DNA of 64,000 nt, taken from assembly GCA_945866135.1 (NCBI GenBank), contig CAMBGF010000001.1, positions 24,805-88,804 of the forward strand. The letters run 5' to 3'. Shown piece by piece: positions 4,996-38,647 of this stretch. The first letter of the stretch is position 1. Each line of letters starts with the position of its first letter. The notes beneath the pieces were generated by a model. That model was not told the DNA's origin. It was given only the letters and a program-made list of their open reading frames with translations, and did no database searches. A program made the position numbers and the translations under genes. This DNA is from Bifidobacterium breve. Its GTDB lineage: Bacteria; Actinomycetota; Actinomycetes; S36-B12; UBA5976.

Positions 4996-6642
4996 CTAGT
5001 TCTTAAACCAATCAACATATTCTGGCGCTAGTGGAGTCTTTTCCTGAATCAAATCTGCTGCGCGTTCGGCAACCATCATGGTTGGGGCATAGAGATTTGC
5101 ATTTGTTACGTATGGAAATACTGATGCATCAACCACGTATAAGCCTTCAACACCATGAACCTTCATAGTGTTTGGATCTACTACGCTCATTTCATCGGTG
5201 CCCATTTTCGCAGTGCATGATGGGTGGTAGGCAGTCTCGGCATCTTTAGCTACCCATTCAAGAATTTCCTCTGGTGTTTGCACGCTTGGGCCAGGGGAGA
5301 GTTCACCGTCACTGTATTTATCAAATGCGGACTGCGCCAAGATGTTTCGCGTAACTTGAATGGCTTCTACCCATTCGCGCCGGTCCTGTTCAGTTGAAAG
5401 GTAATTAAACAAGATCGAAGGTTTAGCCATCGGATCAGCACTTTTTATTTCAATTCGTCCGCGAGCATCCGAATACATCGGCCCAACATGAACTTGGTAT
5501 CCGTGTCCTTGCTCAATTCCAGTTCCGTCATAACGCACTGCAATCGGCAAAAAGTGATACATCAAGTTTGGGTACTTAACCGTGTCGTTAGAACGAGCAA
5601 AGCCGCCACCTTCAAAGTGATTTGTCGCGCCCGGCCCCTTACGCGCGAATAACCAGGCAGCCCCAATGAATGGTCGCTTCCAAATCTTAAGATTTGGGTT
5701 CATGGTTATTGGCAGTTTGCAGGCATGCTGGATGTAAACCTCGAGGTGATCCTGCAAGTTTTGTCCAACACCTGGCAAATCTTTTACAACGGCAATGCCA
5801 TGCTTCTTCAAAAGTTCCGCTGGACCGATTCCAGAAAGCTGAAGTACTTGCGGGGTATTAATTGCGCCACCACAAAGAATCACATTCTTGGCTCGATACT
5901 CCGTTATTTTCTTGCCACGTTGAGCAACTACCCCAACAGCTTTATCGCCTTCGAAAATAACTCGGTGCACTTGATGACGAGTCTGAATTGTTAGATTTTT
6001 ACGACTCATTACAGGATGCAGGTACGCCGTTGCAGAAGACCAGCGTCGACCGTTTTTTACGTTCTTATCAAAAGGTCCAAAGCCCTCTTGGCTGTAACCA
6101 TTGACATCAGCAGTGCGCTTGAATCCAGCAGATTCGGCAGCGTCAAAGAAAGCTTTAAAAAGTGGATTCTTTGCTGGTCCTTTTTCTAAATAAAGTGGGC
6201 CGTCATGGCCACGGTAAACCTTGTCATTTGGAACGCCAGTCGCATTTTCCATTTTCTTAAAGTAAGGCAGGCAGTGCGCGAAGTCCCAGTTCGCCATACC
6301 TTTATCGCTAGCCCAACGCTGGTAATCAAGGGGGTTACCGCGCTGGAAAATCATGCCATTTATGGAACCTGACCCGCCAAGTATTTTGCCGCGGCCCTGG
6401 AATACCCGGCGGCCATTCATGTGTGGTTCAGGATCAGTTTCATACAACCAGTCATAGAACTTATTACCAATTGGAAATGTCAGTGCAGCTGGCATTTGGA
6501 TGTAAACATCCCACCACGAGTCTTTGCGACCCGCTTCCAGAACTAGAACTTCGTTATCTGGATTTTCGGAAAGTCGATTGCCAAGTACTGAGCCAGCAGA
6601 ACCGCCGCCAATTATTAAATAGTCATATTCCTTTGTTTCCAT
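4996..6642 (-). CDS. betA: GMC-family choline dehydrogenase
   Basis: 548 aa. N-terminal FAD fold [24 protein letters not shown] signature [14 protein letters not shown], and C-terminal HPSCTAKMG. It lies in a betaine catabolic context. Confidence 0.85.
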
Positions 6643-7490
6643 TACAGATTTCCTTCAGCAGTATCTACCACGTTTGCTAACAACATGGCGCGAGTCATCG
6701 GTCCAGTGCCACCTGGCATTGGCGCGATCCAGCCAGCAACTTGTGCGCAGGCAGGATCTATATCGCCAAGTAATCCAGCATCGGTTCGAGTAATACCGAC
6801 ATCAACTAGGGCAGCACCGGATTTGATCATGCTGGGCTTAATAAAATGTGGCACTCCTGCGGCCGCAACCACGATGTCAGCACGTTTAATGTGCGCCGCC
6901 ATATCTTTAGTTCCAGTGTGGCAAAGCGTGACAGTTGCATTCTCACTGCGCCGAGTGAGCAACAGGCCAAGTGGGCGACCAACGGTTACACCACGACCAA
7001 TAATGCAAACTTCGGCGCCATCAATATTTACGCCGAAGGCGCGAAGCAATTCAACAATTCCGCGAGGTGTGCAGGGAAGGGGCGCTGGTTCACCGAGTAC
7101 TAACCGACCTAAGTTAGTCGGATGAAGTCCATCAGCATCTTTTCGCGGATCAATGGCTTCGAGCGCCGCATTGGAATCGAGTCCTTTTGGTAATGGCAAC
7201 TGCACAATGTAGCCAGTGCAGGCAGGGTCAGCATTCAATCGCGCAATCGCAGCCATTACATCTTGCTGAGTTGCGGTAGCAGGTAGGTCTTCACGCACTG
7301 ATGTGATGCCAACTTCATGGCAGTCTTTGTGCTTGCCACCGACATATGAATGTGATCCTGGGTCATTGCCAACCAAGATCGTGCCAAGACCTGGATAAAT
7401 ACCCTTTGCGTGCAGCGCAGTTACGCGAGTGGCAAGGCCCTCCTTTACTTTTGCAGCAGTGGCGATTCCATCAAGAATTACGGCAGACAC
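6642..7490 (-). CDS. folD: bifunctional 5,10-methylene-H4F dehydrogenase / methenyl-H4F cyclohydrolase
   Basis: 282 aa with the motifs [28 protein letters not shown] and [10 protein letters not shown]. Confidence 0.95.
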
Positions 7491-7513
7491 TATTCCTACT
7501 TCCGAGTAAGTAA

Positions 7514-8119
7514 TTAGAGGTATTCAACAGTTGAATCAGCTAGAACATCCCACAGATGCGTTGCAAATGATGAGCGAACAAAAATTAGATAGCAATTTTC
7601 GCAGCAATGCCAAAGAATAACTGGAGATTTCGCCATCAAGCCTTGAGTGCAAGCGTCGATTGGAAACTTAGCGTCCCGCAAATCCTGTTCCCAAACATGG
7701 CCCAGAATCTCTTTAACTTTCGGGCCATAGATTTCTAGTTTGGTGCGTTGGGCACTGACATCTACAACTGAAATATGATGCACGTTTTGCACTGGCTTTA
7801 GCAACGACTCAATGTCAGCAGTGCCGGTTAATAGCCACCAGTCAGGACCTAGGCACAGTGCACTAATTCCATGGGATTCTGGTTGCTGATCTTGGCTGAC
7901 TATGCAATCGGCGTTCTTTCGTACCACTGATCCAACTTGCGGATTCAGTGTCAATCCAAGTGCTTGGTTGACCGCCGCAAAAGCTGGCGAACTTGGATCC
8001 ACGCGCAAGTCAATGCCAGGAGTGTATGGAACTTCAGCTATGTAGATGCCTTTGTCTAATCCACCGTGCACTGCGCCACCGAGTGGGCTAGTTGCTTTGG
8101 CGCTGTTTACCTTAACCAT
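7514..8119 (-). CDS. soxG: sarcosine oxidase gamma subunit
   Basis: Called from its position after soxA and its size of about 200 aa. I chose the ATG at 8119 (MVKVNS...), which has AAGGAG 13 nt upstream and overlaps the soxA stop (ATGGTTAA). The track ORF extends to 8146. Confidence 0.7.
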
Positions 8120-10784
8120 CTCGACGCACGTTCTCCTTATCGACAAAAATTGGTTCTGTGATCACAGCAGTTTCATTGCCAATTGCAACGCGTTCGCCAA
8201 TGCGAGCCCGCCCATTGTGTACCAGTGCCAGTGCAAATGATCGATTAAGTTCACCTGAGAAATAGGAACTTGTTACATATCCAATGTGCGGAATCGGTGG
8301 CGTAGCTCCCTTATGTTGAACCTCTGCAAAGTATGAGCCTTCTGGAATTACGTATTCCCAAGTCTCCGGCAACAAGCCCACCAACTGATGTCGATCTGAT
8401 CGACTGGTGTCAGCGCGATTGAACGAGCGCTTTCCAATGAAGTCATCCTTCTTTTTGGACACAATCCAATCCATGTCAAGATCTTGTGGAGTTTGGGTTC
8501 CGTCGGTTTCTTGGCCAACAATTACGAAGCCTTTTTCAGCCCGAAGTACGTGCAAGGATTCTGTGCCGTATGGCGTCACGTCCAGCGCAGCACCTAATTC
8601 CATAACCTTGTTCCAGAGCTCTAGGCCGTACCATGCGCAGACATTTATCTCGTATGCAAGTTCGCCTGAGAAAGATATTCGAGCTATGCGGGCTGGAATT
8701 CCAGCAACATCGCCATACTTGTTCTCCATGAATGCAAAGCCTTCTTTGGATACCTCGAGGCTAGGTGACAACAGCGCTAGCAGTTCACGACTCTTTGGCC
8801 CAACTATGGCAACAGTTGCAATTTGTTCCGTTACTGATGTGCAAAATACTTCAAGGTGTGGCCATTCAGTCTGCAACCATTCTTCGAGCCAGTCCATAAC
8901 TTTTGCAGCTCCACCAGTGGTTGTTGTCATCAGCCAATGATTTTCGCCAAGTCTCGTTGTTACGCCATCGTCAAAGACCATGCCATCGACACCGCACATT
9001 AAGCCGTATCTACTCATGCCAACTTTGAGAGTCGAGAACATGTTGGTGTAAACCTGATCTAGGAAAGCACCCGCATCTTTTCCTTGAATATCAATTTTGC
9101 CCAAAGTGCTGGCATCCATAACAGCTACGCCGTTACGCGCAGCTCGACATTCCCGCAAAACTGCAGAATGTAGATCCTCGCCCGGCTTTGGAAAAAACCA
9201 AGGACGCTTCCATTGCCCGACATCTTCCATCGGAGCGCCGGCAGCAACATGCCATGGGTGTATTGATGTAGTGCGAATTGGTTCGGTATGTAATCCACGT
9301 TCTCGGCCAGCCAGCGCTGCAAAGGGGACAGCAATGTACGGTGGGCGAAAGGTTAGCGAACCAATTTCATCAGGTTCTAATCCAACTAGATTGCCAATCA
9401 GGCCCATAGTTAGCGTGCCGCTAGTTTTACCCTGATCGTGCGCGGTACCAATTGCGGTGTAACGCTTAACATGTTCAATACTGATCATGCCAGCGCCAAC
9501 TGCACGACGAAGATCGCGCAAGGTTGCATCACGCTGATGATCTACATAGGCGACTAAGCCTTGCGTATCGTCAAGTTTGGGACCAAAGAAGACGGCTGGT
9601 TCATATTCTTCAAAATCCCCAGCCAACATGCCAACCGTGCTGATGCTCTTAACTTTTGAGCGCACAATGAACGCTGCTCGTTTTTTGCTCCAAGTTGGTT
9701 TGATTCCGATGTAGGTAGCTAAGTGAACTGTTGGAGTCCAGCCACCTGAAATTGCAAGTAAGTCAGTAGAAATCGTCTCTCTTAATCCAGACTTAGGATC
9801 ATTGATGACAACGCTGGAAAGAATTCCATCCAAAGTGCCATTGGTATCAAGTGCGGTGGCACCTTTTATGATTCGAATTCCAAGTTTCGCAGCTGGTTTG
9901 CGAGCAGATTTATTACTGGCCTTGGATAACTTCTTTCGGACATCAACAATTGCAAGAACTCGAACCCCAGATTTGTGCAATCGGATTGCATCGGTGTAGC
10001 CCTGATTATCTACCGTGATAACGACAGCAGTCTTGAACATTGTTACGCCACGTTCGACATAAGTAGCGCCAGCATGGGAAAGCATGATCCCTGGACGATC
10101 GTTGTTTGCAAAAACAAGCGGTCTTTGGAAAGCACCAGTTGCCAGGACAGTGTGTTCAGCGCGAACGTGCCAAGTGCGAATTCTGGCAACATCCGTTGAA
10201 ACTTTGCTGTTGATGTGATCAGTCCGGCGTTCTACTGCAACGGCATAACCTTGGTCATAAGTTCCAATTACTGTGGTGCGCTGCAGGTGCAGAACATTTT
10301 TGCGGGTGAGGGCAGAGAGCAGTTCAGGAGGAATTGTCTCACCACATTGTTGGGCGTGACCGCCAACTTCAGGTTTGTCATCCATGATAATTACGGTCTT
10401 GCCTTGATCGGCGTATTTTTTCGCTTCGGCTAAACCAGCTAACCCGGCACCCACCACTAAAACATCCGCATACCGATAAGCCCGGTCGTACCGAGAAAGA
10501 TCACGAGTATCTGGCAAGTCACCAATTCCTGAAAGACTGCGCGCCACAAGGCCGTCAGTAATTTCAACCGTCGTTGCTTGCACCATAGGTTCACCAGCAC
10601 CTGAATCAATGTTTACTAGAGCATTTGGTTCATCAATCCAAAGACTCATGATTCCACGTGGTCGGTCTCTGTAGGTACTGTCAGTGAAATGCAATACGCC
10701 ATTTCGTAATAGGGCAGTCGCTAGTGAATCACCAGCTTGGCCAACGTAATCGACTCCATCAAACTTGAAAGTTACATTGCTCAT
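8112..10784 (-). CDS. soxA: sarcosine oxidase alpha subunit
   Basis: 890 aa with an N-terminal 2Fe-2S-like fold, the dinucleotide fold DVLVVGAGLAGLAEA, and a C-terminal GcvT/H4F-binding domain. Confidence 0.9.
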   Translation of the reverse strand: MSNVTFKFDGVDYVGQAGDSLATALLRNGVLHFTDSTYRDRPRGIMSLWIDEPNALVNIDSGAGEPMVQATTVEITDGLVARSLSGIGDLPDTRDLSRYDRAYRYADVLVVGAGLAGLAEAKKYADQGKTVIIMDDKPEVGGHAQQCGETIPPELLSALTRKNVLHLQRTTVIGTYDQGYAVAVERRTDHINSKVSTDVARIRTWHVRAEHTVLATGAFQRPLVFANNDRPGIMLSHAGATYVERGVTMFKTAVVITVDNQGYTDAIRLHKSGVRVLAIVDVRKKLSKASNKSARKPAAKLGIRIIKGATALDTNGTLDGILSSVVINDPKSGLRETISTDLLAISGGWTPTVHLATYIGIKPTWSKKRAAFIVRSKVKSISTVGMLAGDFEEYEPAVFFGPKLDDTQGLVAYVDHQRDATLRDLRRAVGAGMISIEHVKRYTAIGTAHDQGKTSGTLTMGLIGNLVGLEPDEIGSLTFRPPYIAVPFAALAGRERGLHTEPIRTTSIHPWHVAAGAPMEDVGQWKRPWFFPKPGEDLHSAVLRECRAARNGVAVMDASTLGKIDIQGKDAGAFLDQVYTNMFSTLKVGMSRYGLMCGVDGMVFDDGVTTRLGENHWLMTTTTGGAAKVMDWLEEWLQTEWPHLEVFCTSVTEQIATVAIVGPKSRELLALLSPSLEVSKEGFAFMENKYGDVAGIPARIARISFSGELAYEINVCAWYGLELWNKVMELGAALDVTPYGTESLHVLRAEKGFVIVGQETDGTQTPQDLDMDWIVSKKKDDFIGKRSFNRADTSRSDRHQLVGLLPETWEYVIPEGSYFAEVQHKGATPPIPHIGYVTSSYFSGELNRSFALALVHNGRARIGERVAIGNETAVITEPIFVDKENVRRDG

Positions 10785-11059
10785 ACTGGTCTCTTTGGTT
10801 GCTCGGTAAATGGTTTATACGTCGGGCCAAATTCGTGAGTTATGGTGTTGCGCCAAACGTTAAACCAGCGTCGACATCCAGCAGAATGCACCCAACGCTC
10901 GGCATGCCAGCCCTTTGGATTTTCTCTAATAAAGACAAACTTCGACCATTCTTCATCAGTCGCGCTTGCCGGATCTGGATAAAAGATATTTGCGCCAGCG
11001 CCGTAGTGAAATTCAGTTTCATCACGTGGGCCGCAGTAAGGGCATGGAATGTGTAACAT
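10781..11059 (-). CDS. soxD: sarcosine oxidase delta subunit
   Basis: 92 aa starting MLHIPCPYCGPRDETEFHYGG, with the zinc-binding Cys/His pattern typical of SoxD. Confidence 0.9.
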   Translation of the reverse strand: MLHIPCPYCGPRDETEFHYGAGANIFYPDPASATDEEWSKFVFIRENPKGWHAERWVHSAGCRRWFNVWRNTITHEFGPTYKPFTEQPKRPV

Positions 11060-11068
11060 TTCAGACTC

Positions 11069-12310
11069 CTAATGTGCCACGCCGGCTGCGCCGTGCTCGT
11101 CGATTAAATGACCAGTTACAAATCGGTTCAGGCTAAATGGAGCATTTAATTCATGAGGTTCACCCGTTGCAATGGTGTGTGCCATAGTCCAACCGGATGC
11201 AGGGGTTGCTTTGAAACCACCAGTACCCCAACCAGTATTTATAAATAAGTTTTCAACGGGCGTGTGTCCAATGATTGGCGAGGCATCGGGTGAAATGTCG
11301 ACTATGCCACCCCAAGTACGAAGTAGGTGAGCTCGTTCAAAAATCGGGAAGAGTTCGATTGCTGCTGCTAACTGATGTTCAATCACATGGAAGCCACCGC
11401 GTTGTGCGTAGGAATTGAAAGCATCAGTTCCTGCACCCATTACTAATTCACCTTTATGGGCTTGGCTTACGTACACATGCACCATGCCACTCATGATTAC
11501 AGTGTTGTGAACTTGTTCCAGCAGTTCAGAAACTAGTGCTTGCAGTGGCCTGCTTTGAATCGGAATATCAAAACCTGCAAGATTTGCTAACACGCTGGAA
11601 TGCCCGGCAGCTACCATGCCTACTTTTTGTGCGGCGATTGGACCGAGATTGGTTTTTACGCCGTGAACTTTTCCATCACGAATATCAAAGCCAGTGACTT
11701 CGCAGCCTTGAATGATGTCAACACCCATGTCAGCTGCGGCTTTGGCGTAACCCCAAGCGACCCAGTCATGCTTAGCGATACCACCGCGGGGTTGGAAAGT
11801 AGCGCCAAGTACTGGGTAGCGAACATCTGGATTGATATTAACAATTGGCGCAATTTCTTTTACTTGCTCTGGAGTCAACCATTCGCTATCGATGTCGTTT
11901 ATTTTATTGGCATGGTAATTGCGTGCCTTGGCTCGCAAGTCACTCACGCTGTGAGCAAGGGACATTACTCCACGTTGGCTAAAGAACATTTCGTAGCCAA
12001 CTTCTTCTTCGAGATTTTCCCAAAGTTTTAGGGAGTGCTCGTAAATTCCGGCAGATTCATCCCAAAGGTAATTGGATCTGATGACAGTAGTGTTGCGGGC
12101 CATGTTTCCGCCAGCTAACCAGCCTTTTTCTAGTACCGCGATGTTGGTAATGCCATGGTTCTTAGCTAGGTAATAAGCAGTTGACAGTCCATGACCCCCA
12201 CCACCGATGATGATGACGTCATAAACCTTTTTGGGAGTAACTCGCGCAGTCCACAAAAAATCAGGATGTTCAGGTAATTCGACACTTCGTCGACGAGTCG
12301 TGGTAGCCAT
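11069..12310 (-). CDS. soxB: sarcosine oxidase beta subunit
   Basis: 413 aa with the FAD fold [20 protein letters not shown]. The gene order is soxB-D-A-G. Confidence 0.92.
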
Positions 12311-12333
12311 GTTTAGAGCCTATCTACTGATAA

Positions 12334-14784: not shown

Positions 14785-14824
14785 CTGTTGCGAACTATGC
14801 AACAGAGTGCGTGTTGCGCAACAC
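14785..14824. promoter_or_regulatory. two adjacent perfect palindromes upstream of the dimethylglycine oxidase operon (candidate operator)
   Basis: CTGTTGC-gaactat-GCAACAG at 14785-14805 and GTGTTGCGCAACAC at 14811-14824. They lie 28-67 nt upstream of the start at 14757. The same TGTTGC/GCAACA half-site recurs at 21268-21307. Confidence 0.4.
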
Positions 14825-14876: not shown

Positions 14877-14916
14877 AAAAAAAGAACTGGTGAGCCCCGA
14901 AGGACTCACCAGTTCT
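14877..14916 (-). terminator. rho-independent terminator after opuAC
   Basis: Perfect 12-bp stem AGAACTGGTGAG / CTCACCAGTTCT (14883-14894 and 14905-14916) with a 10-nt loop. On the minus strand it is followed by a T7 run (A7 at 14877-14883 on plus). Confidence 0.6.
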
Positions 14917-20487: not shown

Positions 20488-20498
20488 AGTTGAAAACC

Positions 20499-24546: not shown

Positions 24547-24631
24547 GATTGTGAAACTTCCTTGAAGTCCTTGCAACCTGGAATTAGTACAAATTTAGCC
24601 CAAGTTTATAAAGCATATAGAAGGAGGCGAG

Positions 24632-26064: not shown

Positions 26065-26072
26065 CAAAATTC

Positions 26073-28247: not shown

Positions 28248-28276
28248 CCGATAAGAATTAGCTGAAAGTAAAACCA

Positions 28277-30145: not shown

Positions 30146-30735
30146 GCATCGCAGTGATTGCATGTGGAGCACTTGCTGCCCACGTTCATGAAATAGCAGA
30201 TCGTCGAAATTTGGACTTGCATGTTGAGCCGGTCAATCCGTTACTCCACAACCGCCCTGAAGGAATTGCGCCAGAAGTTGAAAAACTAATTCTGGAATTA
30301 CAACCAATACATGATCAAGTTGCTATTGCCTACGCAGACTGTGGAACTTACGGTGCGATAGATCAACTTTGTGACAAGTACCAAGTCTCGCGCTTGTCTG
30401 GAGATCATTGCTATGACGTGTTTGCCACTGCGGAAAAAATGAAAGCTGAATTCGAAGCTGAGCCAGGTACTTATGTATTCACGGACTACCTAGTAAAGAC
30501 TTTCAGGCGCAGCGTCATGGTGGAAATGGGACTGGAAAAATACCCAGAACTTCGGGATGACTACTTTCACTCCTACAAGCGAGTGCTTTGGCTATCACAG
30601 CGCCAAACCCCTGAATTAGAGGCTGCCGCCCAAGATGCAGCGCAACTAATCGGCCTGCCACTTGAAATTATGCATGTTGGAGATGCACACTTAGAAGAGC
30701 AGCTCCTTGCTTTGATTGGATCAAAAGTTGAGTAA
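30142..30735 (+). CDS. DUF1638-like protein of unknown function
   Basis: 197 aa. The pattern VIACGALAAHV..., YADCGTYGAID, GDHCYDVF resembles DUF1638 proteins. It is coupled to RACo upstream and overlaps fdsG downstream. Confidence 0.55.
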   Translation: MSIAVIACGALAAHVHEIADRRNLDLHVEPVNPLLHNRPEGIAPEVEKLILELQPIHDQVAIAYADCGTYGAIDQLCDKYQVSRLSGDHCYDVFATAEKMKAEFEAEPGTYVFTDYLVKTFRRSVMVEMGLEKYPELRDDYFHSYKRVLWLSQRQTPELEAAAQDAAQLIGLPLEIMHVGDAHLEEQLLALIGSKVE

Positions 30736-31189
30736 TTATTCCGAGGAAAGCATTCTGAATTACTTGGGACCTTACAAAGGCGAGGCGTCAGCGATTTTAC
30801 GTTCTTTGCAGTTGGTGCAAGAACTTTTGGGTTACGTGCCAGATAGCGCCATTGATTTAGTCGCTAAAAATTCCAATGTTTCGCGCGCCGAAGTTTATGG
30901 CGTATTTACCTTCTACAGTGATTTCCGCTCAACACCTCCTGCCCAAGTTGTCGTTAAAGTGTGTGTCGCTGAGGCTTGCCAAGCATCTGGAAATGCCGAA
31001 TTGATTTCACAATTACACGGCCAGGGCTATGACATTCACAGTGGAAAAATTAAAGATGATATTCAAATGGAACAAACTTTCTGCTTAGGAAATTGCGCAC
31101 TTGGCCCAGCTGCCATGGTTAACGGTAAGCCGATTGGACGCGCAACTAGCGCGAGTATTTTGAAGACCGCTGTGGAACTTATTTCGTGA
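30716..31189 (+). CDS. fdsG: NAD-dependent formate dehydrogenase gamma subunit (NuoE-like 2Fe-2S)
   Basis: 157 aa with the NuoE-type Cys pattern (CVAEACQASG ... CLGNCALGPA). The track uses a TTG start, so the exact start is uncertain. Confidence 0.8.
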   Translation: MDQKLSNYSEESILNYLGPYKGEASAILRSLQLVQELLGYVPDSAIDLVAKNSNVSRAEVYGVFTFYSDFRSTPPAQVVVKVCVAEACQASGNAELISQLHGQGYDIHSGKIKDDIQMEQTFCLGNCALGPAAMVNGKPIGRATSASILKTAVELIS

Positions 31190-32733
31190 TTAAAGTATTT
31201 GTTCCTTTGGATTCTGCTGCCTTATCAATGGGCGCAGACGAAGTGGCCATTGCAATTGTGCAAAGCGCCGCAAGCCAAGGCAAAGACATTACTTTGATCC
31301 GCACAGGATCCAGAGGAATGCTTTGGTTGGAACCATTAGTTGAGGTTGAAACTTCAGCTGGCCGCATTGGTTTCGCCAACATAAGCACCGAGGCAGTCCC
31401 TGAGTTAATCAAAAGTGGAGCGCTAGACACTGGATCCCATAAATCAAGTATTGGATTAGTCGAAGAACATGATTTCTTTAAGAATCAAAACCGAGTAACT
31501 TTCGCCCGCGTTGGAGTAATTGATCCACTTTCGATTTCAGATTACGAAAATCATGGCGGTCTTGTAGGACTGCGCAAGGCGCTGGAAATGTCTGCCGCTG
31601 AAGTAGTTTCACAAGTTACTGAATCCGGACTGCGTGGTCGTGGCGGCGCAGGATTCCCAGCTGGCATTAAATGGCAAACGGTACTTAACACGCAGTCAGA
31701 TCAAAAATACATTTGTTGCAATGCCGATGAAGGTGACAGTGGGACATTCGCAGACAGAATGCTGATGGAAGGTGATCCATTTACTCTGATTGAAGGAATG
31801 ATCATCTCTGGAATTGCAGTCGGTGCAACGCAAGGTCTGATTTATGTGCGCTCGGAATATCCTCATGCAATTGACATCTTGAATCGTGCGATTGCGATGG
31901 CAAACGAATATGGCTTACTTGGTTCAAACGTCTTGGGATCGAAATCTGCTTTTGCTCTTGAGGTTAGAGTTGGCGCAGGCAGTTACGTGTGTGGTGAAGA
32001 GACCGCAATGCTGGAAAGTCTGGAAGGCAAACGTGGCATGGTTCGTGCTAAGCCTCCGATCCCAGCGCTGGTTGGATTGTTTGGGAAACCAACAGTAATA
32101 AATAACGTGATGACTTTGTCTGCGGTTCCAATGATTTTGGCGCAAGGTGCTGCTGCGTATCAGGCACTAGGACATGAGCGCTCCCGCGGTACGCAAGTAT
32201 TTCAACTCGCTGGAAACATAAAACGAGGTGGCGTAGTTGAAGTTGCTTTCGGAATCACTCTAGGTGAACTCGTAGATATCTACGGCGGTGGAACTAACAG
32301 TGGTAAGCCTGTTAAGACTGTGCAAATTGGTGGACCACTTGGGGCTTACTTAGGTACTGAATCTTGGGATGTTGCGATGGCTTATGAATCCCTTGCCCAA
32401 GCTGGTGGCATGCTGGGCCACGGCGGCATTGTGGTTTTTGACGATACGGCAAACATGGCAAAGCAAGCAAGGTTTGCTATGGAATTTTGCGCGGAAGAAT
32501 CGTGTGGCAAATGCACTCCTTGTCGTATCGGGTCAACTCGTGGAGTTGAAGTTATTGATCGAATTGTTGCGGGCGAAGATCAAGAAAAAAACCTCGAATT
32601 ACTTGAGGATCTGTGTGAAGTCATGACTGACGGTTCGCTTTGTGCAATGGGTGGACTCACTCCAATGCCAGTTCGCAGTGCACTCAAGTTATTTCCAGCT
32701 GATTTCGGGATCAAGACAGGAGCAAAGTTATGA
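31186..32733 (+). CDS. fdsB: NAD-dependent formate dehydrogenase beta subunit (NuoF-like, FMN/NAD/4Fe-4S)
   Basis: 515 aa with GRGGAGFPAGIKW and CGKCTPCR. GTG start overlapping the fdsG stop. Confidence 0.9.
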   Translation: MIKVFVPLDSAALSMGADEVAIAIVQSAASQGKDITLIRTGSRGMLWLEPLVEVETSAGRIGFANISTEAVPELIKSGALDTGSHKSSIGLVEEHDFFKNQNRVTFARVGVIDPLSISDYENHGGLVGLRKALEMSAAEVVSQVTESGLRGRGGAGFPAGIKWQTVLNTQSDQKYICCNADEGDSGTFADRMLMEGDPFTLIEGMIISGIAVGATQGLIYVRSEYPHAIDILNRAIAMANEYGLLGSNVLGSKSAFALEVRVGAGSYVCGEETAMLESLEGKRGMVRAKPPIPALVGLFGKPTVINNVMTLSAVPMILAQGAAAYQALGHERSRGTQVFQLAGNIKRGGVVEVAFGITLGELVDIYGGGTNSGKPVKTVQIGGPLGAYLGTESWDVAMAYESLAQAGGMLGHGGIVVFDDTANMAKQARFAMEFCAEESCGKCTPCRIGSTRGVEVIDRIVAGEDQEKNLELLEDLCEVMTDGSLCAMGGLTPMPVRSALKLFPADFGIKTGAKL

Positions 32734-35576
32734 CAGTAGTTTCAGATCCACGCGGCACTATGCCAATGCGATCAGGAATTGGTGAAGCTGATTATGGAAC
32801 ACCCAAATCGGATTCAGATGTTCTGGTAAACGTCACTATTGATGGCCAGTCCCATTTAGTTCCGCTTGGAACGTCAATCATGCGAGCAGCCGGGGAAGCT
32901 GGTTGTGACATTCCAAAGCTTTGCGCCACTGATTCATTGCAACCATTTGGATCCTGCCGAATGTGCCTTGTCGAAATTGATGGTCGAAAAGGAACTCCAG
33001 CTTCCTGCACCACACCTGTCGAAGAAGGAATGGTAGTTCGCACTCAGACTGCAAAAGTTGCAAAACTTCGTAAAGGCATGATGGAGCTTTACATTTCAGA
33101 TCACCCGCTCGATTGCCTCACTTGCTCAGCAAATGGCGATTGCGAACTCCAGGATATGGCTGGGGTATCAGGACTTCGCGAAGTTCGTTACGGCATAGGC
33201 AAAAATCATCTTGATGCACCAACGGATTCCTCGAATCCTTATTTCTCATTTGATGAGAGTAAATGCATTGTCTGTAATCGCTGCGTTCGCGCGTGCGACG
33301 AAGTACAAGGCACTCTTGCCCTAACTATTGAAGGACGTGGCTTTAATTCAAAGGTAAGTCCAGGTGGCTTGAACTTTTTATCTAGTGAATGTGTATCTTG
33401 TGGAGCTTGTGTGCAAGCTTGTCCGACTGCAACATTGCAAGAAAAATCTGTAATTGATTTAGGTATGCCAACTAGGACTGTTGAAACTACTTGTGCCTAC
33501 TGTGGCGTCGGTTGCTCATTCAATGCTGAGCTACGCGGTGATGAATTGATTCGAATGGTTCCAACAAAAACCGGTGGAGCTAATGAAGGTCACAGTTGCG
33601 TAAAAGGTCGATTTGCTTGGGGATACGCCTCACACAGTGACCGCGTAACCACACCAATGATGCGCGAGAAAATTACCGATGAATGGCGCGTAGTTTCTTG
33701 GGATGAAGCGATCCAATTCACAGCCACAAAGTTCAAGGCAATTCAAGAAAAATATGGTGACAATAGCATCGGCGGTATTTCGTCATCACGTTGTACTAAT
33801 GAGGAAATTTTCGTTGTCCAGAAAATGGTTCGTGCTGCTTTTGGCAATAACAACATTGATACTTGTGCGCGCGTGTGCCACTCACCAACGGGCTATGGCT
33901 TAAGTACCACGTTTGGCACCTCAGCTGGCACTCAAGACTTTAAATCAGTTGCTCACTCAGATGTGATCGTTGTGATTGGAGCAAATCCAACTGATGCGCA
34001 TCCAGTATTTGCTTCGCGCATGAAGCGACGAATTCGGGCTGGGGCGAAGTTAATTGTGATTGATCCGCGCAAGATTGATCTCGTGGAATCTGCTCACATC
34101 AAAGCTGATTTCCACTTACCACTACAGCCCGGAACTAATGTGGCAGTAATCAACGCAATTGCACATGTAATTGCAACTGAAGGTTTAATTGATGAAGAAT
34201 TCGTAGCGCAGCGCTGCGATCCAGGTCAGTTCAAGCGCTGGCGCGCATTTATTGAACTTCCCGAAAACAGCCCAGAAGTAGTTTCCGCGCAATCTGGAGT
34301 TCCGGCGCAATTGATTCGCGAAGCTGCTCGGATGTATGCCGCTGGTAATAACGCAGCAATTTATTACGGTCTGGGCGTCACTGAGCATTCCCAGGGTTCA
34401 ACCATGGTTATGGGTATGGCCAACTTAGCCATGGCAACTGGAAACATTGGGCGCGAAGGAGTTGGCATCATTCCATTGCGCGGCCAAAACAATGTGCAAG
34501 GCGCTTGCGATATGGGTTCTTTCCCGCACGAACTTTCGGGTTATCGACATGTTTCTGACAATGCAGTCCGTGAACAATTCGAAATGTTGTGGGACGTAAA
34601 GCTGTTACCAGATCCTGGAATGCGCATCCCAAATATGTTTGACAACGCTATTTCCGGAGAATTCCGCGGCGTATTTGTGCATGGCGAAGATATTGCGCAA
34701 TCGGATCCAAACGTTAAACATGTTCACCGGGCTCTTGAATCGATGGATCTTGTCGTCGTGCAAGATTTATTCCTGAACGAAACCTCAAAGTTTGCGCATG
34801 TTTTCTTGCCAGGAACTTCCTTCTTAGAAAAAGATGGCACCTTTACTAACGCTGAGCGTCGTATTAATCGAGTCCGTCCAGTTATGGCGGCTCGCAACGG
34901 TAAGCAAGAGTGGCAGATTGTTTGTGAAATCGCGCAAGCCATGGGTTATGACATGCACTACGACAATGCTGCACAGATTATGGATGAGATTGCGCAAATC
35001 ACTCCAACTTTTAAGGGCGTGAGTTTTGCCATGCTTGACCAGGTTGGTAGCGTGCAATGGCCATGCAATGACGCCGCTCCAACTGGCACACCAATTATGC
35101 ACATTGATAATTTCGTTCGTGGCCAAGGTCAGTTCATGGAAACGCCTTTTGTTCCTACCGAAGAACGTTCAAATCGTAAGTTCCCACTTTTACTTACTAC
35201 TGGTCGAATCTTGAGCCAGTACAACGTAGGCGCGCAAACTCGTCGTACTAAGAACACCACATGGCACACGCAAGATTTACTCGAGATTCATGAGGCGGAC
35301 GCAGCTATGCGAGGGATCGTGGATGGGCAGAAAATCGCAATCACAAGTCGCATTGGCGAAACGATTTTGACTGCTCATGTTACCCAGCGAGTCCCAGCAG
35401 GTGTGGTTCACACAACTTTTCACCACCCGCAAAGTGGTGCAAATGTTATTACGACAGAATTCTCGGATTGGGCAACCAATTGTCCTGAGTATAAAGTGAC
35501 GGCTGTTGAAATTCGTCCCGCAGAATCTAGTGCGCCTGCAACCAATACCCTCGATGAAGTGCTGACAAAGGTCTAG
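32730..35576 (+). CDS. fdsA: NAD-dependent formate dehydrogenase alpha subunit (bis-MGD, Cys-type)
   Basis: 948 aa with an N-terminal NuoG-like 2Fe-2S and 4Fe-4S Cys clusters, then a molybdopterin domain whose active site reads ARVCHSPTGYG. The residue is Cys and there is no in-frame TGA. Confidence 0.92.
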   Translation: MTVVSDPRGTMPMRSGIGEADYGTPKSDSDVLVNVTIDGQSHLVPLGTSIMRAAGEAGCDIPKLCATDSLQPFGSCRMCLVEIDGRKGTPASCTTPVEEGMVVRTQTAKVAKLRKGMMELYISDHPLDCLTCSANGDCELQDMAGVSGLREVRYGIGKNHLDAPTDSSNPYFSFDESKCIVCNRCVRACDEVQGTLALTIEGRGFNSKVSPGGLNFLSSECVSCGACVQACPTATLQEKSVIDLGMPTRTVETTCAYCGVGCSFNAELRGDELIRMVPTKTGGANEGHSCVKGRFAWGYASHSDRVTTPMMREKITDEWRVVSWDEAIQFTATKFKAIQEKYGDNSIGGISSSRCTNEEIFVVQKMVRAAFGNNNIDTCARVCHSPTGYGLSTTFGTSAGTQDFKSVAHSDVIVVIGANPTDAHPVFASRMKRRIRAGAKLIVIDPRKIDLVESAHIKADFHLPLQPGTNVAVINAIAHVIATEGLIDEEFVAQRCDPGQFKRWRAFIELPENSPEVVSAQSGVPAQLIREAARMYAAGNNAAIYYGLGVTEHSQGSTMVMGMANLAMATGNIGREGVGIIPLRGQNNVQGACDMGSFPHELSGYRHVSDNAVREQFEMLWDVKLLPDPGMRIPNMFDNAISGEFRGVFVHGEDIAQSDPNVKHVHRALESMDLVVVQDLFLNETSKFAHVFLPGTSFLEKDGTFTNAERRINRVRPVMAARNGKQEWQIVCEIAQAMGYDMHYDNAAQIMDEIAQITPTFKGVSFAMLDQVGSVQWPCNDAAPTGTPIMHIDNFVRGQGQFMETPFVPTEERSNRKFPLLLTTGRILSQYNVGAQTRRTKNTTWHTQDLLEIHEADAAMRGIVDGQKIAITSRIGETILTAHVTQRVPAGVVHTTFHHPQSGANVITTEFSDWATNCPEYKVTAVEIRPAESSAPATNTLDEVLTKV

Positions 35577-35578
35577 TA

Positions 35579-35794
35579 ATGGATGTCACAATACTAACTC
35601 GAATGGCCGAGCAAATTGAACTTAATATTCCTGTCCATGAAGACACTTACCTAAGAATTTCAGAGCACTTAGTGAAATTCTGGACACCACAAATGCGCAC
35701 AGATTTTTATCAGCAAGTAACGAAAAACCGAAAAGATTTCAGCGCAACATTAAATAAAGTTGTTGATGAACTTCGAGCGAAAGCTAATGCTTAA
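35579..35794 (+). CDS. fdsD: formate dehydrogenase delta subunit
   Basis: 71 aa with HLVKFWTPQMR, matching the FdsD-family FW-P-M-R motif. It lies immediately after fdsA. Confidence 0.75.
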   Translation: MDVTILTRMAEQIELNIPVHEDTYLRISEHLVKFWTPQMRTDFYQQVTKNRKDFSATLNKVVDELRAKANA

Positions 35795-36969
35795 TTAATT
35801 CGCCAAGGCAATGGCAAGATTCGAATTAAAGTTCCAGCAGGATTTTCGCCAGGAGAAATTACCGCTAAACCCTCCGCATGAGAGAGTCCACGTAACATAG
35901 CGGAACCTCGGAATTCGGTAAGTTGCGCTTTGCCGGAACTAAGCACTATCGGCACCACGCGCGTTCTTTCACATGGATAATCCAGTTCAAGTTGCGTTTT
36001 TGTCATGCGGTAATTTTCTTGCCCGGTAAGCCCGCGAAGTGCTGGGGCAACAATCGTTAAAAAACTAACCAGGGCAGCAAGTGGATTACCGGGAAGGCCA
36101 GCAACTAACTGGCCGCTGGGTAATCTTGCGAGCAGGCTGGGATGTCCAGGTCGCATGAAAATTTCATCGATGATGTTAGTGGCTTTTAATTCCATAAGCG
36201 CCGTTCGCAAATAGTCGCGCTCACCATGAGCGCTGCCGCCAGTTACCACAATAATTTCGCCTGTACTTTCAGAAATTAAATTCTTAAGCTGAGCCAGATC
36301 ATCAGGACAGTTAATGCTAGAACTCACATTTGCACCAAGATATTCAACCCAGGAAGAAACTTGGATAGTAAGCGAATCGCGAATCTGACCAAGTTCAGGC
36401 GTGCCACTTGAGACAAGTTCACTTCCAGTCACGATTATCGCTACCGCTGGCTTTTCATAGACTAAAACCTCATCGATTTGAGAACTAGTGGCCAGACCCA
36501 TTACGGCAGGAGTTAGGAGCGTTCCTGCGGCAGCAATAATTTCGCCGGCTTCAGCTTCGTCGCCAGGTGTGCGAATGTGCTGGCCGAGTGTGAATGAATT
36601 TTTACTAGCTACTGATCCATCGAACAGACTTGCTAATTCGCTAGGAATCACAAACGAACAGTGCGGCGGTAAATGTGCACCTGTACTTACTTTCAGTGCG
36701 CACCCAGAATCCAAGTAGGGCAAATAGCTCCCAGCATGTAGTTCTCCGACGATGTTCCATGGCCCAGGTCCAAATACTGCGTAGCCATCCATCATCGAAG
36801 TGTGAGCCGGTGGCAATGAGATTTGGGAAACTAGAGATTCAGCTAAAACTTGATTTAGTGCCTGTGCCAAGGGAATCGAGATTGCAGACTTAGTAACCAC
36901 AGATTGGCTGCTTAGGGCAACCGCTGAATCCCAATCCACATTGTGATTATTGTCCCCAGTCATAGACAT
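35791..36969 (-). CDS. moeA: molybdopterin molybdenumtransferase
   Basis: 392-aa MoeA-like sequence (SMMDGYAV, VTGGSAHGERDY). It is convergent with fdsD and the 3' ends overlap by 4 nt. Confidence 0.85.
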   Translation of the reverse strand: MSMTGDNNHNVDWDSAVALSSQSVVTKSAISIPLAQALNQVLAESLVSQISLPPAHTSMMDGYAVFGPGPWNIVGELHAGSYLPYLDSGCALKVSTGAHLPPHCSFVIPSELASLFDGSVASKNSFTLGQHIRTPGDEAEAGEIIAAAGTLLTPAVMGLATSSQIDEVLVYEKPAVAIIVTGSELVSSGTPELGQIRDSLTIQVSSWVEYLGANVSSSINCPDDLAQLKNLISESTGEIIVVTGGSAHGERDYLRTALMELKATNIIDEIFMRPGHPSLLARLPSGQLVAGLPGNPLAALVSFLTIVAPALRGLTGQENYRMTKTQLELDYPCERTRVVPIVLSSGKAQLTEFRGSAMLRGLSHAEGLAVISPGENPAGTLIRILPLPWRIN

Positions 36970-37002
36970 AATCTACCGAACCCATGCCATGCTTTAGACC
37001 TG

Positions 37003-37824
37003 ATGAACAACGTTGACTCAATAATTGTTGCTGGTGGTAGCGCCTCGCGACTGAGCGGAATCGATAAGGCGTTGTTGCCATTTGGGTCAGCCGGCAACAC
37101 ATTGCTAGTTGATGCAGTAGCCGCTTGTCCAGGCCGAGTTCTCGTTGTGGGTTTACCTCGCGACATTGCCGTGGCAGTAATCGCGCGCGTGACATGGGTT
37201 TCTGATTTAAATCCAGGCGGTGGTCCAGCTGCGGGAATCTGGTCAGGCCTAGAACACGTGAACACAGAATATGTTTTTATTTCAGCTGGTGATCAAACTC
37301 TGGACTCAGAAACAGTGACGGCAATTATCGAAGCAGCCGCAGGAAATGACGGCGCTTGGGCTATTCGCGAAGATGGCCTAGGGCAACCACTTTGTGCCTG
37401 TGTCAGAACGCAATCACTTAGGGAAATGCTTGCACCCACGCAAGGGATAAACCTTTCACCACTTCGGTTACTTTCGACTTTGAATATGGTCGGCGTTAGT
37501 GTGAAGCCAGGACAGGTTACAGATTTTGATACTTGGGCAGATGTAACTAGAGCGGTTAAGCGGAGTGAAGCAATGGATCAGATTACGCAAATGTGGTTAG
37601 CTCGGGTTGCTGCGATATTAGAAGTGGATCAACATGGACTCCCAGTTGCGCAACTTCTTGACTTAACCCGCGAAGTTGCCCACGGCGTCGAACGTAAGTC
37701 CGCCCCGCTAACTACTTATCTTCTCGGTTACGCCGCAGGGAAAAAGTCTTTAACATCAGCCGAAGTTACCGATCTACTTAGCCACGTTTCCAAAGCAGTG
37801 CAGGAATGGGAAAGCGTTGAATAG
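37003..37824 (+). CDS. mobA: molybdenum cofactor guanylyltransferase with an extra ~80-aa C-terminal domain
   Basis: I chose the start at 37003 (MNNVDSIIVAGGSASRLSGIDKALLPF) because the track start 36943 would overlap moeA. The NTP-transferase fold is followed by an additional helical C-terminal region. Confidence 0.75.
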   Translation: MNNVDSIIVAGGSASRLSGIDKALLPFGSAGNTLLVDAVAACPGRVLVVGLPRDIAVAVIARVTWVSDLNPGGGPAAGIWSGLEHVNTEYVFISAGDQTLDSETVTAIIEAAAGNDGAWAIREDGLGQPLCACVRTQSLREMLAPTQGINLSPLRLLSTLNMVGVSVKPGQVTDFDTWADVTRAVKRSEAMDQITQMWLARVAAILEVDQHGLPVAQLLDLTREVAHGVERKSAPLTTYLLGYAAGKKSLTSAEVTDLLSHVSKAVQEWESVE

Positions 37825-38647
37825 CGACGAACCAATTTCAGCAACGCAACGTATTCAGGTTTCTAAAACTGACAGCGATGCGAGCGTAAGCGATCATGTC
37901 GTTGGGGAAGAGCCGCTTGAAATTCGGATTGACGGCGGGGCAGGGTTACAACAACTTGCAATCACAATGCGAACACCAGGTGCGGACATCGAATTAGGTG
38001 CAGGTTTTTTGTGGTCTGAAGGTTTACTAAGAAACCGAGAAGATTTAATTGGAATCACAACGTGTAAAGACAAAGAACTATCGCCACGAGAACAAGAAAA
38101 TGTAATTGTCGCAAGAGTTGTGGCCGATGCGCCCGCAGTCACGCGAACAATGGAGCGAAGATTCACCATTTCAAGTGCTTGTGGTGTTTGTGGTTCAACA
38201 CATATTCATGATCTGCGTGAGCGTGGATGTAAAAATGTGTCTGCACCTGGATTAAGTGACGATGAACTAGCAAAGCTTCCCGAGCTAATGCGTCCTAAGC
38301 AAAAAATATTTGATAAAACCGGTGGCCTCCATGCTGCTGGATTATTTGATCCGTCCGGAAGTTTAATTGTTGTTCGTGAAGATGTTGGTCGCCATAATGC
38401 AGTGGACAAAGTTATTGGTTACGCCTTAATGCATGACATGTTGCCGCTAGCTGGGCATTCATTGGCAATTTCTGGCCGTGGTGGTTTTGAAATAATTCAA
38501 AAAGCAATCGCAGCTCAAATCTCAGCAGTGGTGGCAGTGTCGGCGCCTACTTCATTAGCTGTTGAAACCGCGCGCGAATTTGGTTTGACCCTACTTGGCT
38601 TTACTCGAAATGGGTCAGCGACAAAATATTCTCCTTATTCGCAATAA
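37817..38647 (+). CDS. fdhD: formate dehydrogenase accessory sulfurtransferase
   Basis: 276 aa with SSACGVCG and VGRHNAVDK motifs. Confidence 0.9.
   Translation: MNSDEPISATQRIQVSKTDSDASVSDHVVGEEPLEIRIDGGAGLQQLAITMRTPGADIELGAGFLWSEGLLRNREDLIGITTCKDKELSPREQENVIVARVVADAPAVTRTMERRFTISSACGVCGSTHIHDLRERGCKNVSAPGLSDDELAKLPELMRPKQKIFDKTGGLHAAGLFDPSGSLIVVREDVGRHNAVDKVIGYALMHDMLPLAGHSLAISGRGGFEIIQKAIAAQISAVVAVSAPTSLAVETAREFGLTLLGFTRNGSATKYSPYSQ

Follow-up and report, generated by a model that had tools for sequence, protein, structure and literature searches.

Can one chromosomal locus of an aerobic freshwater actinobacterium carry choline from uptake to glycine, and its N-methyl groups all the way to CO2? 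The question is raised by a 64,000-nucleotide stretch of contig CAMBGF010000001.1 (assembly GCA_945866135.1), hereafter the window, whose host belongs to a freshwater lineage of Actinomycetota labeled Candidatus Nanopelagicales by depositors. Positions 4996–38647 of the window hold 28 contiguous genes, from the stop codon of betA to that of fdhD. Genes were assigned from a listing of open reading frames (ORFs), Pfam domain scans, NCBIfam scans with curated cutoffs, and sequence matches to PDB entries. We consider it likely that this 34-kb block is an aerobic supercluster that turns choline or glycine betaine into glycine while oxidizing each of the three N-methyl groups to CO2 by way of tetrahydrofolate (H4F). 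The predicted mechanism matches the aerobic MtgBCD-MetF2 pathway type already published for marine Proteobacteria in 2025, of which the block is a very complete new example.

We infer the substrates, the direction of flux, and the electron acceptor of MetFV in the following route. An OpuA/ProU-type ABC importer would take up the quaternary amine, and BetA and BetB would oxidize choline through betaine aldehyde to glycine betaine. The MttB homolog would transfer a methyl group from betaine to the Co(I) form of the corrinoid protein MtgC, giving dimethylglycine and CH3-Co(III)-MtgC, and a MeTr-like methyltransferase would pass the methyl from the corrinoid to H4F. RACo, probably together with a DUF1638 protein, would use ATP to re-reduce corrinoid that had become oxidized to Co(II), and MetF with MetV would oxidize methyl-H4F to methylene-H4F. 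Dimethylglycine and sarcosine oxidases are enzymes that channel the C1 unit to H4F and yield methylene-H4F directly; dimethylglycine oxidase (DMGO) and then SoxBDAG would thus convert dimethylglycine to sarcosine and glycine, each consuming O2. FolD would take methylene-H4F to 10-formyl-H4F, Fhs would release formate and make ATP, and FdsGBAD, matured by MoeA, MobA, and FdhD, would oxidize formate to CO2 with reduction of NAD+ to NADH. The block encodes, with support at least at the family level, an enzyme for every step proposed in the initial annotation of this DNA. Its picture of three demethylations that deliver C1 units to H4F also stands, with the amendment that only the first (betaine) methyl would enter as methyl-H4F, the other two entering as methylene-H4F.

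Gene content and order can be read directly from the window. On the minus strand, run 1 consists of the mttB-family gene (24434–22995) followed by fhs (22998–21331). In transcription order, run 2 reads iclR1, a betB-like gene, a ProV-type ATPase, a fused double permease, and an OpuAC-type lipoprotein, and run 3 reads dmgo, soxB, soxD, soxA, soxG, folD, and betA. The plus-strand run (24632–35794) comprises 11 genes, namely iclR2 and those for the corrinoid protein, MetV, MetF, a pterin-binding methyltransferase, RACo, DUF1638, FdsG, FdsB, FdsA, and FdsD; gaps are 29 nucleotides (nt) or less throughout, and seven junctions overlap. Beyond fdsD lie moeA on the minus strand and then mobA-DUF6457 and fdhD on the plus strand. 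We read these runs as operons because their genes overlap or lie close together and because a terminator follows opuAC, where the end of run 2 had been placed initially and where the hairpin runs from 14916 to 14883 of the minus strand:

14883–14916, minus strand: intrinsic-terminator-like hairpin at the end of the iclR1-betB-ABC operon; 15-bp stem with 8 GC pairs and a T7 tail

All genes named in the initial annotation were recovered at their coordinates by the ORF listing and family scans, although two details of arrangement had to be changed. It had counted moeA in the plus-strand series, whereas moeA (36969–35791) is on the minus strand and convergent with fdsD. The genes of its corrinoid module are present but do not form a single block: mtgC precedes metV-metF, and the MeTr-type methyltransferase, the RACo activase, and DUF1638, which are module genes it had left unnamed, come after. 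Likely start positions were revised for opuAC (15908), soxG (8119), and mobA (37003), the latter two backed by ortholog lengths.

Removal of the first methyl group and its passage to methylene-H4F are assigned to the following genes:

22995–24434, minus strand: MttB-superfamily methyltransferase without pyrrolysine, predicted glycine betaine:corrinoid methyltransferase (MtgB-like); PF06253, 622 bits over profile positions 25–499 of 500
25408–26064, plus strand: mtgC-like corrinoid protein; PF02607 and PF02310, with the DxHxxG motif present as DVHDIG
26073–26468, plus strand: metV, small Cys-rich partner of MetF; PF12225, 8 Cys
26468–27409, plus strand: metF, methylene-H4F reductase, predicted methyl-H4F oxidizer; PF02219
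27393–28247, plus strand: methyl-corrinoid:H4F methyltransferase of the MeTr/AcsE/MtgD type; NF005719, 294 bits (cutoff 259)
28277–30145, plus strand: RACo-type ATP-dependent reductive activator of corrinoid proteins; all four RACo Pfam domains (N-terminal 2Fe-2S, linker, middle, ASKHA ATPase)
30142–30735, plus strand: DUF1638 protein, conserved companion of corrinoid reactivation; PF07796

The MttB homolog is an uninterrupted ORF of 479 codons with no in-frame UAG. Its best PDB match is 4YYC (436 bits, 44.9% identity), deposited as a putative trimethylamine methyltransferase; it matches Desulfitobacterium hafniense MtgB (2QNE/9YCE) with 401 bits and 41.5% identity, the pyrrolysine-type MttB 7XCL with 133 bits, and TIGR02369 with 270 bits (cutoff 525). 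A pyrrolysine-containing trimethylamine (TMA) methyltransferase was ruled out by the uninterrupted frame, the TIGR02369 score below cutoff, and the 133 bits to 7XCL vs. 401 to 2QNE. We take betaine as the substrate because the block makes betaine (BetA, BetB), uses dimethylglycine (DMGO), and holds no other enzyme to convert the one into the other. Neither BHMT nor GbcAB was found in the window, and both were rejected as the betaine demethylase on that ground; the one GbcB signal comes from the N-terminus of RACo, where a 2Fe-2S domain matches weakly.

Homologs of MtgB, MtgC, MtgD, a MetF paralog, a reductive activase, and DUF1638 are thus all encoded within 22995–30735. The best NCBIfam families for the corrinoid protein are MtgC_2 at 203 bits and MtbC at 188 bits, neither of which reaches its cutoff. 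The MeTr-like methyltransferase scores 147 bits to Carboxydothermus hydrogenoformans MeTr (2YCK) and also matches the MetH pterin domain, while RACo scores 347 bits to Carboxydothermus RACo (3ZYY) and 434 bits to the AcsV family (cutoff 800). The metF gene overlaps metV by 1 nt, and MetF is distant from canonical MetF structures; the eight cysteines of MetV are consistent with a role as an iron-sulfur electron-transfer partner.

Oxidation of the C1 unit from methylene-H4F to CO2 is predicted from folD, fhs, the fds genes, and genes for molybdenum cofactor (Moco) maturation:

6642–7490, minus strand: folD, methylene-H4F dehydrogenase/methenyl-H4F cyclohydrolase; NF010789, 468 bits (cutoff 401), PF00763 and PF02882; overlaps betA by 1 nt
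21331–22998, minus strand: fhs, formate-H4F ligase; NF010030, 902 bits (cutoff 652); overlaps mttB by 4 nt
30716–31189, plus strand: fdsG; NF004638 (formate dehydrogenase gamma), 134 bits, below cutoff, and PF01257; overlaps the DUF1638 gene by 20 nt
31186–32733, plus strand: fdsB, NuoF-like FMN/NAD module; PF01512 and PF10589
32730–35576, plus strand: fdsA, Mo-bisPGD catalytic subunit; TIGR01591, 897 bits (cutoff 666)
35579–35794, plus strand: fdsD, 71 aa; PF11390, 36.7 bits (cutoff 27)
35791–36969, minus strand: moeA, molybdopterin molybdotransferase; MoeA_N, MoCF_biosynth, and MoeA_C domains
37003–37824, plus strand: mobA fused to DUF6457; PF12804 and PF20058, orthologs of 273 aa
37817–38647, plus strand: fdhD, sulfurtransferase for formate dehydrogenase maturation; PF02634, 202 bits, and TIGR00129, 141.2 bits (cutoff 140.9)

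FdsA aligns over its full length with Rhodobacter capsulatus FdsA (6TG9; 1385 bits), and its Mo-site motif ARVCHSPTGYG is identical to that of 6TG9, matching C386/H387 of the R. capsulatus protein. The subunit order G-B-A-D with fdhD nearby is the layout of FdsGBAD-type NAD+-dependent Mo formate dehydrogenases.

Uptake, choline oxidation, and the two later demethylations are assigned to the remaining enzyme and transporter genes of the minus strand:

4996–6642, minus strand: betA, choline dehydrogenase of the GMC family, last gene of the dmgo-sox-folD-betA operon; TIGR01810 equivalog, 830 bits (cutoff 732), GMC_oxred_N and GMC_oxred_C
7514–8119, minus strand: soxG, sarcosine oxidase gamma; PF04268, and TIGR01375 at 93 bits, below its cutoff of 144; the ORF is open to 8146, with a likely ATG at 8119 and orthologs of 201 aa
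8112–10784, minus strand: soxA, sarcosine oxidase alpha, short form of ~890 aa; TIGR01372 at 1007 bits, below its cutoff of 1164; Fer2_4, SO_alpha_A3, GCV_T, and GCV_T_C
10781–11059, minus strand: soxD, sarcosine oxidase delta, 92 aa; TIGR01374, 122 bits (cutoff 116.5), and PF04267
11069–12310, minus strand: soxB, sarcosine oxidase beta; TIGR01373, 605 bits (cutoff 529)
12334–14757, minus strand: dimethylglycine oxidase, 807 aa, first gene of run 3; domains DAO-FAO_M-GCV_T(-GCV_T_C)
14940–15908, minus strand: opuAC-type substrate-binding lipoprotein with lipobox LLAAC; PF04069
15979–17958, minus strand: fused double permease of a choline/betaine ABC importer, 659 aa; two BPD_transp_1 stretches, TIGR03416 359 bits, ProW 328 bits
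17955–18989, minus strand: ProV/OpuAA-type ABC ATPase; TIGR01186, 360 bits (cutoff 327)
18982–20487, minus strand: betB-like betaine-aldehyde dehydrogenase; best family TIGR01804 (BADH) at 581 bits, below its cutoff of 669; PF00171

DMGO matches Arthrobacter globiformis DMGO (1PJ5) with 828 bits over residues 3–806 of 807, and the beta, delta, alpha, and gamma genes of sarcosine oxidase stand together in one operon. Across the block, BetA, FolD, Fhs, SoxB, SoxD, FdsA, the ABC ATPase, and the pterin methyltransferase pass curated NCBIfam cutoffs. Homologs of the short-form SoxA (58–59% identity) also occur in Bacteroidota (Chitinophagaceae, Flavihumibacter), and this subtype therefore crosses phyla.

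For the comparison of related genomes, one genome per species was scanned with the ortholog alignment, giving 80 actinobacterial loci (cited here by L numbers), and all window proteins were used in tblastn searches; neighborhood counts refer to the 48 species-level loci whose flanks extend a full 10 kb to either side of mttB. An exact-sequence search with the window MttB returned no record, and the host was placed by way of its relatives. The closest relatives are metagenome-assembled genomes (MAGs) from lakes and rivers, with an MttB 98% identical in "Actinomycetes bacterium ChBW.bin.33" and ~90% identical in MAGs from Lake Mendota and Lac Pavin labeled Candidatus Nanopelagicales or Actinomycetota. 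The gene order of the window, with FdsABG...IclR2 divergent from MttB-Fhs-IclR1-BetB-ABC-DMGO, recurs in L005, L007, L008, L011, and L015 (MttB 73–98% identical). L011 and L086 both derive from a single 42.8-kb contig, which carries the block from FdsA to BetA with an MttB 78% identical. The left half of the block and its flank are kept in L085 and L087, while the left flank differs in L086; the right half through fdhD is kept in L088–L090 (FdhD 75–97% identical), and the right flank is largely common to L088 and L090. Window flanks are typically actinobacterial (an Rv2466c-like protein; tig-clpP1-clpP2-clpX-valS), GC content is even at 0.46–0.49, and no integrase or other mobility gene was found in the window. 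Synteny of the block and, for the most part, its flanks in relatives, even GC, and the lack of mobility genes mark the block as a chromosomal locus inherited vertically in this clade, with synteny reaching down to ~73–78% protein identity. A genomic island acquired by horizontal transfer was rejected on the same evidence; the left flank differs in the more distant L086. The expectation that the genes are inherited as a unit, for which a comparison of related genomes had been suggested, therefore holds for this clade, with FdsA to BetA on one contig of a relative and the right end in L088–L090.

The consolidated form is confined to this clade, where it accounts for 3 of the 48 loci. Its parts are far more widely distributed: within 10 kb of mttB, the corrinoid core (MtgC, methyltransferase, RACo) is present in 46 loci, DUF1638 in 45, a methylene-H4F reductase (MTHFR) gene of either type in 44, betB in 34, betA together with betB in 30, and PurU or Fhs in 31, with PurU in 27. 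Since PurU is an irreversible formyl-H4F hydrolase in the equivalent position, its presence supports oxidative C1 flux. Other Actinomycetota combine the modules in other ways; typically, the core is joined by IclR1-BetB-BetA-ABC, PurU, and an MTHFR of a different type.

In L001 and most Nocardioides/Marmoricola-type loci (L016–L084), PurU (27/48) and a MetV-less MTHFR (36/48) replace Fhs and MetVF, and Fds is usually missing from the surrounding 10 kb. In the Nanopelagicaceae-labeled MAGs L019, L022, L029, L053, and L059, FdsB/FdsA adjoin the DUF1638 end on the opposite strand, and betA-fdhD follow the ABC genes. A close relative, L087 (JANRDD010000033.1), encodes BetB, ABC transporter, DMGO, FolD, BetA, and EamA proteins 89–97% identical to those of the window, while its SoxB, SoxD, SoxA, and SoxG are only 82, 80, 70, and 68% identical to the products of window positions 7514–12310. 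The pattern suggests that the soxBDAG segment was exchanged by recombination within the operon. The BetA call in L087 is split into a 94-aa and a 471-aa piece, for which a frameshift or an assembly error may be responsible.

How the block might be regulated is suggested by two regulators and two kinds of palindrome:

20499–21278, minus strand: iclR1, IclR-family regulator, first gene of run 2; HTH_IclR and IclR_C domains
24632–25411, plus strand: iclR2, IclR-family regulator, first gene of the 11-gene operon; assigned by IclR domain scan, divergent from mttB in all relatives
24531–24546, no strand: palindrome TGGAAC-N4-GTTCCA, putative IclR2 operator, midway between the mttB and iclR2 starts
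21269–21306, no strand: nested palindrome with TGTTGC-N7-GCAACA, putative IclR1 operator, between fhs and iclR1; overlaps a -35/-10-like pair and the iclR1 start codon
14786–14823, no strand: putative operator pair upstream of dmgo; TGTTGC-N7-GCAACA at 14786–14804 and the 12-bp palindrome TGTTGCGCAACA at 14812–14823

TGGAAC-N4-GTTCCA has one match in the window vs. 0.01 expected. With up to two mismatches, it occurs in 62 of 81 orthologous intergenic regions, many of them exact, with constant half-sites and a variable spacer; the chance rate was estimated at ~1% per locus for a region of ~250 nt. TGTTGC-N7-GCAACA has exactly two copies in the window, at 21269–21287 and 14786–14804. If one mismatch is allowed, 6 of 8 loci have it upstream of dmgo and 13 of 42 have it upstream of iclR1, and the palindrome on the iclR1 side is kept at the same position in L005–L008, L011, and L015. 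The 14786–14804 copy is 29 nt from dmgo on its upstream side and adjoins the 12-bp palindrome, and a -10-like hexamer (promoter-like match 14857–14829) immediately precedes the pair. A further TGTTGC...GCAACA match inside mobA (37073–37099) was taken as chance, given its wrong spacing and its place in coding sequence. The sigma-70 promoter scan returned fewer matches than shuffled sequence (10 vs. 24; 9 vs. 19) and was uninformative overall, and only the two matches that coincide with conserved palindromes were used. An Rfam scan of the window for cobalamin, THF, and glycine riboswitches found none; it matched four tRNAs, all outside the block.

These two conserved palindromic operators suggest two IclR regulons. 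We infer the pairing of regulator and operator: IclR2 would act through TGGAAC-N4-GTTCCA on mttB-fhs and on the divergent 11-gene corrinoid/metVF/fds operon, and IclR1 would act through TGTTGC-N7-GCAACA on iclR1-betB-ABC and on dmgo-soxBDAG-folD-betA. The genes had been thought to be regulated as a unit, but the picture looks more like two IclR regulons that together span five or six units of transcription.

Specificity for betaine is predicted for the MttB homolog from its context; the active-site match is incomplete. In D. hafniense MtgB, mutagenesis and a betaine-bound structure show that Y97, R312, H348, and F356 bind betaine, and the F356L substitution lifts Km several hundred-fold (Picking et al., 2026; PMC13080624). 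Y97, R312, and H348 align with Y98, R312, and H348 of the window protein and are invariant in 13 actinobacterial orthologs, while F356 is Gly356, in the motif AGWLEGGL common with the uncharacterized 4YYC. Because this second cation-pi residue is replaced by Gly, we file the protein as MtgB-like in predicted function, short of a proven MtgB. W352, one helical turn from position 356 and invariant like G356 in the 13 orthologs, could supply the second aromatic face in place of F356. It is accordingly worth asking whether the enzyme acts on another amine (choline, proline betaine, carnitine, gamma-butyrobetaine, or TMA) in a mixed quaternary-amine locus, with betaine demethylated elsewhere. Besides the Gly, this would fit the diverse specificities of the MttB superfamily, whose aromatic pair varies among members (PMC13080624), the best PDB match to an entry with no stated substrate, and the up to seven paralogs, presumably differing in substrate, of R. 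pomeroyi and other bacteria (PMC12478193). Against this, the block has a single MttB gene, and betaine to dimethylglycine is the only step between BetB and DMGO that would otherwise have no enzyme; the protein retains the carboxylate-binding pair R312/H348 and the aromatic Y97, with W352 as a possible substitute; and orthologs at 68–98% identity adjoin betA and betB in 30 of 48 species. We therefore think a different amine quite improbable as the substrate and retain betaine.

Together with Gly356, several observations weigh against the proposed route from choline to CO2. BetB, SoxA, SoxG, MtgC, RACo, and FdsG fall below curated NCBIfam cutoffs, though each has the right family as best match, and the best PDB match of the OpuAC-type protein is weak (4XZ6, deposited as a glycine betaine/proline-binding protein). 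Oxidation of methyl-H4F with NAD+ is thermodynamically uphill. The window contains no glycine sink (gcv, glyA), no genes for cobalamin synthesis or uptake, and no H2O2 defense genes, and the lineage is known only from metagenomes. Finally, FolD is an ordinary actinobacterial equivalog, 89–93% conserved vs. 66–70% for SoxA in the same loci, and may be the only copy of the cell and not pathway-specific. This last point leads to the view that folD, fhs, fdsGBAD, and moeA, mobA, and fdhD are the sole general-purpose C1 genes of the cell, beside amine operons by chance, so that "supercluster" would overstate the unity of the block. The FolD score above an ordinary equivalog cutoff and its unusual conservation agree with this, as does the relation of the lineage to freshwater Actinobacteria with streamlined genomes; moreover, the 10 kb around the core lack Fds, Fhs, and FolD in most other Actinomycetota. 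On the other hand, folD directly follows soxG and overlaps betA (1 nt), fhs overlaps mttB (4 nt), and fdsG overlaps the DUF1638 gene (20 nt); by these overlaps folD, fhs, and fds would be co-transcribed with pathway-specific genes. Fds also adjoins the corrinoid module in two arrangements among Nanopelagicales-labeled loci, and sole-copy status is compatible with a pathway role. A chance juxtaposition of this kind we judge unlikely. Far less plausible still is that MtgC, the pterin methyltransferase, RACo, DUF1638, and MetF serve mainly as a split cobalamin-dependent methionine synthase in the anabolic direction, with incidental catabolic neighbors. The same MtgC and MtgD modules are indispensable for the synthesis of methionine in P. 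inhibens and R. pomeroyi (PMC12478193), and MetF and MeTr-type methyltransferases can run both ways, but neither the window nor any of the annotated relative loci has a homocysteine-binding PF02574 gene; wherever mttB and the module occur together they form a divergent pair, and here the module shares an operon with fdsGBAD; and the module is accompanied by PurU, whose hydrolysis of formyl-H4F is irreversible, in 27 of 48 species. A dual role of the module, in catabolism as well as methionine synthesis, would be compatible with methyl oxidation of choline and betaine through this block and is possible, if rather doubtful.

The closest known system is the aerobic MtgBCD pathway of Ruegeria pomeroyi, supported by genetics and proteomics, which comprises MtgB, MtgC, MtgD, MetF2, RamA, DUF1638, and H4F-linked C1 oxidation (Mausz et al., 2025; PMC12478193). 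The block resembles it in a PF06253 methyltransferase, a separate corrinoid protein, a pterin-binding methyltransferase, a dedicated MetF paralog, an activase, and DUF1638, and in demethylation of dimethylglycine and sarcosine followed by H4F-linked C1 oxidation. Co-location is shared as well, as mtgBCD and the genes for cobalamin reactivation, C1 oxidation, and later demethylations are often found together in Alpha-, Gamma-, and Deltaproteobacteria (PMC12478193). The initial annotation had called a complete route packed into one locus unusual; this is true within Actinomycetota, given the 3 of 48 loci, but less striking beside the proteobacterial clusters. The block differs in its freshwater actinobacterial host; in uniting importer, betAB, fhs, NAD-linked formate dehydrogenase, and Moco genes in 34 kb with fdsGBAD inside the corrinoid operon; in a MetF with Cys-rich MetV, an activase of the 2Fe-2S RACo/AcsV type, and apparently two IclR regulators; and in the absence from the window and annotated relative loci of a link to methionine synthesis (MtgE, PF02574). 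About 5% of oceanic mtgC reads were assigned to Actinomycetota in the same study, which describes no actinobacterial locus (PMC12478193), and our literature searches found no description of an actinobacterial cluster of this type.

Other systems are related to the block in logic. With the anaerobic MtgABC system of D. hafniense (2QNE/9YCE; PMC13080624), it has in common a pyrrolysine-free TIM-barrel MttB-family enzyme (41.5% identical, Y97/R312/H348 kept), a separate DxHxxG corrinoid protein, and methyl transfer to H4F. The differences are the Gly in place of F356, an H4F methyltransferase that matched MeTr and the MetH pterin domain with MtgA not among the labeled PDB matches, and an aerobic host in which methyl-H4F would go to CO2 and not to anaerobic respiration or acetogenesis. 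The cmu genes of Methylobacterium extorquens CM4 (CmuA, CmuB, MetF2, FolD, PurU; PMC3621897) likewise form a cluster in an aerobe, in which a corrinoid methyltransferase pair loads H4F and a dedicated MetF paralog, FolD, and a formyl-H4F-cleaving enzyme lead to formate and CO2. There, however, the donor is chloromethane, CmuA is a fused methyltransferase-corrinoid protein, the genes are plasmid-borne, and PurU, also found in most other Actinomycetota loci, takes the place of Fhs. The image of a Wood-Ljungdahl methyl branch run in reverse, used in the initial annotation, is apt, in that every component of the acetogen branch (Fdh, Fhs, FolD, MetFV, MeTr/AcsE, RACo/AcsV) has a homolog in the block. 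Unlike the acetogen branch, the block is predicted to run oxidatively, without CODH/ACS and CoFeSP, with an NAD-linked, oxygen-tolerant FdsGBAD-type formate dehydrogenase and coupling to O2-dependent flavoprotein oxidases. Compared with the DMGO and heterotetrameric sarcosine oxidase of Arthrobacter and Corynebacterium (1PJ5; 2GAG/1X31), the block has a full-length DMGO ortholog and the canonical soxBDAG order, but its SoxA is the short form below the TIGR01372 cutoff, and its oxidases share an operon with folD and betA.

If our reading is correct, cobalamin-dependent aerobic betaine demethylation extends from marine Proteobacteria to Actinomycetota, including planktonic freshwater lineages and soil genera such as Nocardioides, and the block is its most compact version so far, from uptake to CO2 in one 34-kb locus. 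It would be a handy single-locus marker of choline/betaine methyl oxidation in lake metagenomes and metatranscriptomes, and the implied vitamin B12 need for osmolyte catabolism bears on cross-feeding of B12 and nitrogen with phytoplankton. The main interest lies in an unusually complete single locus in an ecologically important freshwater lineage, in its regulatory details, and in the W352/G356 site variant; an aerobic MetFV is a further handle for experiments. As a long shot, the presence of metVF and fdsGBAD in the translationally coupled corrinoid operon may reflect physical or electronic coupling beyond co-regulation: the FeS protein MetV might pass electrons from the oxidation of methyl-H4F to the FMN/NAD+ module of FdsGB, a version modeled on MetFV-RnfC2 of Acetobacterium woodii, or formate oxidation might supply low-potential electrons for Co(I) regeneration by RACo in an oxic cell. 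We raise this because the DUF1638 gene overlaps fdsG by 20 nt and because Fds adjoins the corrinoid module in the two arrangements of Nanopelagicales-labeled loci. Either coupling, if true, would be a new way for an aerobe to run a reverse methyl branch that is sensitive to oxygen and thermodynamically awkward.

Several features at the borders of the block were also noted. In L002–L004, contigs of an 80%-identical relative from different samples, fewer than 250 bases are available beyond fhs in each case, and the range of L002 reaches the contig end; this may mark a repeat or a strain-variable junction at the place where the window has the iclR1 palindrome. To the left of betA, positions 1678–4970 encode a 795-aa transketolase/PDH-E1-like protein and MFS and EamA transporters, which are kept in L085 and L087 but not in L086 and have no evident link to the pathway. 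Farther out in the right flank, a copper amine oxidase (54666–56603) and a truncated globin (48085–48459) fit aerobic amine use, although they lie outside the block. Immediately right of fdhD, at 38656–39504, come a gene for cation efflux (CDF) and one for a tRNA. L088 and L090 lack the CDF gene there, L089 has it beside znuABC-like genes, and the cluster border thus has a small variable spot.

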